Shown in pieces: positions 29,225-29,633 of a DNA stretch of 64,000 nt (its first letter is position 1; each line of letters opens with the position of its first letter). The position numbers and the translations under genes are program-made. This DNA is from Botryllus schlosseri. Its lineage: Eukaryota. The DNA lies in contig CM119371.1 in assembly GCA_051294905.1 (NCBI GenBank), positions 15,376,001 to 15,440,000 on the forward strand, given 5' to 3'. Below the pieces are notes generated by a model. The model was not told the origin of the DNA. It saw only the letters and a list, made by a program, of their open reading frames with translations, and searched no databases.

Positions 29225-29633
29225 ATGTCGAAGAGGGGAAGTAACATATCTCGAAAACGATTGAGCGACTATCACGTTAAATTAAAACTTTTGAAAAACG
29301 CTAAAGGGAAACAACGAAAAGAACTTTTATCGAACAATCAATTTTTAAGTTGCGTTTGCCAGTGCGTTCATAACTTGGCTTCGGGGACAGTACGTATCTC
29401 CCCGTCTAGAAAGTTGAGGCTTGGAAAACACAAATCTGATATCAGACAATTGTTGGCGCAAAAAACTCGCAGAGGTCAACGGAGGGTGCTACAAAAGGGT
29501 GGATTCCTCTCAGGTATAAAATGATATGATAAAATAGAAACTTTTTTCTAATCAGTCTGTTTTAGCTATATTAGGCGCTGCAATCCCCGTCATCGGGAGT
29601 CTGTTGGGTAAACTTTTCGGGAAGAATGCGTGA
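29225..29633 (+). CDS. Basic core / cupiennin-like protein with spliced amphipathic C-terminal peptide
   Basis: join(29225..29513,29566..29633). 52-nt GT-AG intron with CTAAT branch at 29548-29552. Spliced C-terminus LQKGG|FLSAILGAAIPVIGSLLGKLFGKNA*. The stop overlaps the next ATG at 29626. Confidence 0.82.

Follow-up and report, generated by a model that had tools for sequence, protein, structure and literature searches.

The closest described counterpart of the gene analyzed here is GasderminX of adintoviruses. Starrett et al. (2021; PMC8502044) described GasderminX with a protein X-like C-terminus and Cupiennin as a separate gene, and placed both among the homologs of membrane-active proteins. 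The adenovirus precursor of protein X (mu) consists of 80 residues with two cut sites and a basic core of 19 residues (PMC8156859, PMC7998265). The roles given for it by the reviews are DNA condensation and an effect of its C-terminal region on E2 protein accumulation, not lysis (PMC7998265). The lytic helix of adenovirus is part of protein VI, where it comprises residues 34-54 (PMC8156859), and neither GasderminX nor Cupiennin clustered with protein VI (10.1101/341131). The motifs (M/I/L)xGG and (M/I/L)xGxG are reported for adenain (10.1101/341131), and the protease of mavirus was shown to cut GG↓X and GX↓G (PMC6048507).

Introns have been described in some elements of this type. For intact vertebrate Mavericks, a lack of introns is reported (PMC8097293). 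Nematode Mavericks carry introns in captured cargo genes and their core genes are called intronless (10.1101/2022.07.12.499685), and introners were reported in dinoflagellate eupolintoviral elements (PMC12166617). The locus presented here resembles the nematode and dinoflagellate elements in having spliceosomal introns within a Polinton-type element. It differs from the nematode Mavericks, as they are described, in that the gene interrupted by a very probable intron is a conserved one of the virion module, in an animal element, and not a cargo gene. The main text of PMC8502044 makes no mention of splicing, and the literature searched, which did not extend to the review PMC11426020 or to the supplementary sequences of PMC8502044, yielded no mention of a GasderminX gene with an intron. 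With the core genes of animal Mavericks described as intronless, an inherited intron in the virion module would mean that dependence on the host spliceosome can arise in a lineage. The locus also bears on the question whether the particles of Polintons mature and enter through a membrane in the manner of adenovirus.

A stretch of 64,000 nucleotides from Botryllus schlosseri (contig CM119371.1) was analyzed and is called the window in the following. It contains a Polinton/Maverick (adintovirus-like) insertion of 14,673 bp at 24348..39020 (no strand assigned), which is bounded by the termini AGTAGT...ACTACT and a 6-bp target duplication, CGTATC. The element carries IAP and Bcl-2 cargo genes, an A32-type ATPase, an rve integrase with a chromodomain, ORFs of a capsid module and a protease-like ORF. 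The names penton, hexon and the other capsid labels are those which we presume for the respective ORFs; a Pfam search of the element ORFs did not name penton or hexon. This copy is defective and cannot complete its cycle by itself, because the ORF list holds no PolB-sized ORF, and the integrase, the first penton-like gene and the hexon are each broken over several frames. In the left arm, the IAP (BIR) gene occupies 25363-25944, within 24864-27000 on the minus strand. An unknown ORF at 24864-25406 in the same arm is partly duplicated, similar text being found near 26400-26660.

The gene under study begins at 29225 on the plus strand. Immediately upstream lies the packaging ATPase of the A32/FtsK type (28572..29189, plus strand; Pfam Pox_A32, E 8.3e-9). 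The next gene downstream is a small conserved one (29626..29964, plus strand) with a weak match of 13.5 bits to the corresponding next genes of related loci. On synteny only it is probably 'Adintoc2', a label taken from the gene labels of Fig. S2 in PMC8502044. A HMMER protein scan returned 342 homologs of the gene at E up to 0.001, of which the best 150 were examined. With the 99-residue ORF as query, a word-indexed search of proteins gave no homolog, and scans of viral contigs were likewise negative.

A structural model of the homolog P0002, which is 45% identical to the window protein, reached a pLDDT of 85.6 and showed seven helices and a helical tail. Compared with BFVD, this model had a sole match under 0.001, namely GasderminX of Terrapene box turtle adintovirus (A0A5H3CT60; E 3.7e-5, TM 0.67/0.73, 30% identity). 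Adeno_PX was the most frequent Pfam family; up to an E of 1, it matched 17 of 60 members (best E 1.6e-4), and the matches cover the motif and the tail. The Pfam cut-off is not reached by these scores (best 21 vs 25 bits, in a set of 9 proteins), and exon 2 by itself gave no match in Pfam. Adeno_PX was also the nearest named cluster in the Atlas, with a score of 0.79 that serves as a lead only. A PDB search for a gasdermin C-terminal domain gave no match with E under 0.001 or a Z of 8 or more, the best being unrelated helical proteins with a Z of 5.4. Gasdermins were absent among the PDB matches listed; a link to gasdermin may exist all the same.

By homology, the window gene belongs as an ordinary member to the GasderminX family of adintoviruses, and its tail is protein X-like. 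The gene family, its tail peptide and the idea of membrane activity are thus already published, and the tail peptide is a trait of the family. The likeness to adintovirus GasderminX comprises fold and length, the position in the Polinton virion module beside the FtsK ATPase, and the protein X-like C-terminus; Bcl-2 and IAP cargo likewise appear in the Beta-class maps of PMC8502044. Unlike adintovirus GasderminX, the window gene has its tail split by a very probable intron of 52 nt, as described below. With the adenovirus protein X precursor it shares a basic region, a diglycine protease site and a conserved C-terminal peptide. It departs from that precursor in its folded helical body of about 93 residues, in a single predicted site with Q at P4 and in the Pfam scores below the cut-off.

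Exon 1 (29225..29513, plus strand) encodes the basic helical body, the QKGG motif and the first three residues of the tail. The body contains 25 K+R against 3 D+E in 93 residues. The unspliced ORF from 29225 comprises 99 residues and reaches a stop at 29522-29524, six residues past QKGG. A very probable phase-1 GT..AG intron of 52 nt (29514..29565, plus strand) starts with GTATAAA and ends with TTTTAG; it has a branch-like CTAAT at 29548-29552, which places the branch A at -15, and a donor without G at +5. Its A+T content is 79% vs 58% and 51% in its flanks. Exon 2 (29566..29633, plus strand) provides the remainder of a hydrophobic, Pro-containing, protein X-like tail. The frame behind the intron runs for 21 residues to a TGA at 29631-29633 and overlaps the next ATG at 29626. 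An overlap of the gene's stop with the next ATG was also seen in 51 of 65 pattern matches of related loci, a few of these matches being other genes. A GT donor, a branch site, a pyrimidine-rich AG acceptor and the restoration of a conserved frame, as characteristic for U2-type introns, are all present at 29514-29565. The end of the ORF, the 52-nt stretch, the CTAAT branch and the overlap of stop and ATG agree in all points with the original prediction. A scan of the window for similar short introns found 29514-29565 alone, with scan criteria that had been fitted to that intron, and is given no weight for this reason. A plain frameshift instead of an intron was ruled out by stops in all three frames within or just after the 52 nt, and an alternative donor at 29499 was ruled out on inspection, since the conserved GG would be lost.

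The intron was further examined by means of the relatives' tails. A Q-x-G-G-like pattern was present in 131 of the best 150 of the 342 homologs, followed by a tail of 17-32 residues in 117 of them, a shorter one in 6 and a longer one in 8. This pattern is absent from the remaining 19, several of which carry a full tail behind LxGG. A profile was built from the 117 tails, with their first four residues removed and the window sequence excluded, and compared with 3,418 six-frame fragments of the window. The exon 2 frame ranked first with an E of 1.7e-5 (runner-up 0.39), and the match begins with the first codon that lies entirely in exon 2. Five candidate acceptors were then scored against the tail family with the junction residue set to X. 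The acceptor ending at 29565 scored best with 25.9 bits, followed by the in-frame alternative 29574 with 20.6, the unspliced end with 1.3 and 29555 with -1.8; the reported scores do not include those of 29537 and 29599. The resulting window tail has Pro at position 11, the same as in P0002 and P0044. Both the blind tail profile and the acceptor ranking support the intron that the original prediction had placed at 29514-29565, and the tail said to be hidden behind it was recovered as a match to the tail profile of its relatives. Consequently, the intron is very probably real.

The distribution of the intron was studied in metagenome loci. Since the homologs were too divergent in their alignment to serve for finding loci, the adjoining ATPase was used as query instead. 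The scan covered 27 of 64 parts, and the best 80 of 469 confirmed ATPase matches were taken. A GasderminX-family gene followed the ATPase in 74 of these 80 loci, the other 6 ending within 236 bases. Contig ends cut 6 of the 74, which left 68 assessable loci; many of these are close kin and they do not represent 68 independent lineages. The tail was continuous in 61 of the 68 (58 by rule and 3 by weak matches in the same frame). The 7 broken loci had an in-frame stop or small deletions, amounting to 0 to -10 nt in six and a frameshift of the tail in one, and never an insertion. An intron-sized gap was observed in 0 of the 68 assessable loci and a donor-type pattern in 0 of the 80; four donor-pattern matches in prokaryote genomes were discarded, for they are not homologs. 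Among further proteins, 111 of 114 had a tail of 15-35 residues. The claim that genes of this kind are systematically mis-annotated finds no support in these numbers, given a continuous tail in 117/150, 111/114 and 61/68 cases and no intron-sized gap among the 68 loci. In the present lineage, annotation by ORFs only would truncate the GasderminX gene.

The best homolog match, P0001, shares 53% identity with the window protein. A tree from which the tails were left out placed it as the sister of the window protein with a support of 97/92 (the bootstrap was not fully settled). P0001 ends with G-K-stop at the same place as the unspliced window ORF. A G at the corresponding position was found in 2 of 96 normal tails, and the ending of P0001 is what one would expect from a phase-1 intron with a GTAAG-type donor. 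Because P0001 is the only one among the homologs examined that stops at the same place as the window ORF, a single lineage-specific gain of the intron in the common ancestor of the two elements is suggested as the simplest reading. The next relatives, P0002, P0037 and P0044, have a continuous tail. The assemblies of P0002 and P0044 may be RNA, as may the contig of P0037, and therefore a continuous tail need not mean an intronless gene.

Taken together, we favor, with a probability of about 0.72, a GasderminX family member with a lineage-gained, routinely spliced intron and a protease-released tail. In all probability the lineage of this element acquired a short intron of the host type, three codons after the start of the tail. 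The host spliceosome would, with the same high confidence, remove it as a routine step. The spliced product would be the normal protein of the family with a tail of about 20-25 residues, and regulation would be unnecessary as an explanation.

The predicted protease site is the QKGG motif at 29492..29503 (plus strand), with the cut expected after GG. A candidate protease is encoded by the ORF 34308..34763 (plus strand), which contains His, Asp and Gln...Cys motifs. We take these motif patterns to be those of adenain-like cysteine proteases; the ORF had no match among Pfam and PDB sequences. Of ten element ORFs scanned, only two contained QxGG or QxGxG, namely that of the GasderminX-family protein and ORF 32614, which has two such sites. 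Both sites of ORF 32614 are kept in 25 of the 29 loci having a homolog of this ORF. The QxGG and QxGxG sites of the element parallel the GG↓X and GX↓G cuts of the mavirus protease (PMC6048507). The window QKGG deviates from the adenain rule (M/I/L)xGG, which fits 0 of the 117 tails, a set selected for Q; it does agree with GG↓X itself. P0002, P0037 and P0044, the closest continuous homologs, lie outside the Q-selected set and have LxGG, the adenain consensus. Loss of one residue seems to bring about this switch of the motif. The motifs suggest a preference of the element protease for Q at P4, with a predicted Q-x-G-G / Q-x-G-x-G specificity, and this preference is not strict because LxGG homologs exist. 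Release of the tail after the diglycine motif, as originally proposed, is probable in view of the conserved GG↓X motif, the cleavage being predicted. By analogy to adenovirus pre-X, the precursor would probably be packaged with the DNA via its basic body. It is likely that the element protease then cuts after QKGG during maturation.

The tail had been described as an amphipathic peptide of the lytic type. Its hydrophobic and Pro-containing character was confirmed, with a hydrophobicity of 0.51 and a net charge of +2 for the window tail, and its amphipathicity turned out to be overstated. The best hydrophobic moment over 11 residues was 0.51, a value that was reached by 361 of 5,000 shuffles (p about 0.07); the N-terminal half gave 0.24. 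The homolog tails showed a median moment of 0.44 and a median charge of +1. Much stronger values were obtained for ORF 32614..32985 (plus strand), a conserved ORF located before the hexon and a second predicted protease substrate. It has QSGG at residue 19 and QRGHG at residue 32, followed by an amphipathic helix from 32719. The helix behind QRGH has a moment of 0.81, a value reached by 35 of 5,000 shuffles (p 0.007), and a charge of +4. A model of this ORF was poor (pLDDT 54), and a fold search with it gave no match. This ORF is presumably the Cupiennin gene. Its place between penton and hexon corresponds to the map in PMC8502044. The original prediction had likened the hidden tail to protein VI and to cupiennin-like ORFs. 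This analogy is not supported for a GasderminX gene whose tail resembles protein X, and Cupiennin is likely encoded by ORF 32614-32985. Both protein VI of adenovirus and the Cupiennin of adintoviruses resemble the present system in having a helix exposed by a protease and a membrane action proposed or shown (PMC8502044, PMC8156859). They differ in that the strongly amphipathic helix of the element resides in another gene, ORF 32614. Because of its stronger amphipathic helix behind a similar motif, ORF 32614-32985 is, as judged from its sequence, the better candidate for the entry peptide and for an analog of protein VI.

The GasderminX tail may then serve another purpose. It could be a structural or regulatory propeptide that acts by binding to the capsid interior or the core or by masking toxicity, with the entry peptide provided by ORF 32614, and we regard this as a serious contender. 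It agrees with the weak amphipathicity of the tail next to that of ORF 32614, and with adenovirus, where the C-terminal region of pre-X alters E2 accumulation (PMC7998265) and the lytic helix is that of protein VI (PMC8156859). Against it stands the composition of the tails. F is the first residue in 96 of the 117 homolog tails, a Pro is found at positions 7-13 in 114, and 84 have no acidic residue. An F start, a central Pro and few acidic residues are typical of short lytic peptides from frogs and wasps. Melittin, moreover, resembles protein X in HHpred (PMC8502044). Within the favored reading of a routinely spliced GasderminX gene, a membrane-inserting tail that helps entry beside the stronger amphipathic peptide of ORF 32614 is the leading assignment, tentatively; capsid or core binding is nearly as likely. 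The predicted Q-x-G-G / Q-x-G-x-G specificity and two short peptides offer a cheap in vitro route to the question of Polinton maturation and membrane entry.

Four sequencing runs were mapped to 27400-30400 and yielded 0 reads (X21), 52 reads (X23), 21 contigs (X17) and 17 contigs (X18). No read or contig crossed the junction 29513/29566, and the depth was about 0 at 29521-29722 in all four runs. The sole contig at the donor, from X17, continues unspliced into the intron; it is one contig end of low depth (3.55) from a run guessed to be RNA. This contig, which represents a sister copy, differs at 2 of 162 aligned bases; after these its intron begins differently, with one base less and without the TGA of the unspliced frame. 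This altered start fits non-coding sequence. Splicing was traceable at the Bcl-2 cargo gene (27518-28354, plus strand), which has a 246-nt phase-0 intron with GT..AG ends at 27989-28234 and an exon 2 contributing 39 residues. The joint of this intron is present in one X18 contig (run guessed to be RNA), and four X23 reads diverge from the window sequence at its donor. Therefore, the host splices transcripts of this element family.

The original prediction went further and proposed a late splice switch for the production of an entry peptide. Retention early on would give a tail-less basic protein, and splicing late would give the lytic precursor. The non-consensus donor, the one unspliced contig from the run guessed to be RNA, the placement of the intron such that retention loses only the tail, and an intron apparently common to the 53%-identical relative P0001 are all compatible with a switch of this kind. 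Most relatives, however, are without the intron and hence without such a switch, and where the unspliced frame ends there is no conservation, the window, P0001 and the X17 contig all being different. Unspliced contigs would also be obtained from DNA or pre-mRNA. The switch is not supported by the present data and appears improbable. The same low rating applies to a broader scenario, in which animal Polintons possess two membrane peptides set free by a Q-x-G-G/Q-x-G-x-G protease, namely the tail of GasderminX and the helix of ORF 32614, one of which has come under splicing control in the present lineage. Integrated copies would then produce a harmless protein without the tail, and infectious particles would be licensed once the intron is removed. 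Routine splicing of a lineage-gained intron is preferred to both. That the 52 nt are no intron at all, and that a dead copy instead had its gene disrupted by a neutral insertion rich in A+T, is very unlikely: this copy is defective at other sites and the RNA junction is absent from the mapped runs (depth about 0 there), but the GT, branch and AG signals lie exactly at the register predicted by homology, the sister lineage P0001 ends at the same place, and the 7 broken loci have in-frame stops or small deletions and never an insertion.

Some further rearrangements were observed in and around the element. Contigs of both X17 and X18 depart from the window sequence at 28696 and resume with letters from about 31026, without GT..AG ends at the join. 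This is probably a deleted derivative that is without most of the ATPase, the GasderminX-family gene and the integrase. Tandem duplications of about 500-1,560 nt occur inside the element at 34401-37412, and the 3' part of the protease gene is present twice, at 34401-34700 and 35963-36262, with 97% identity. Other long inverted repeats in the window lie at 139-773, 1367-4423 and 13527-18880, with arms of 313, 417 and 379 nt, respectively, that are 95-97% complementary; these are probably further mobile elements.
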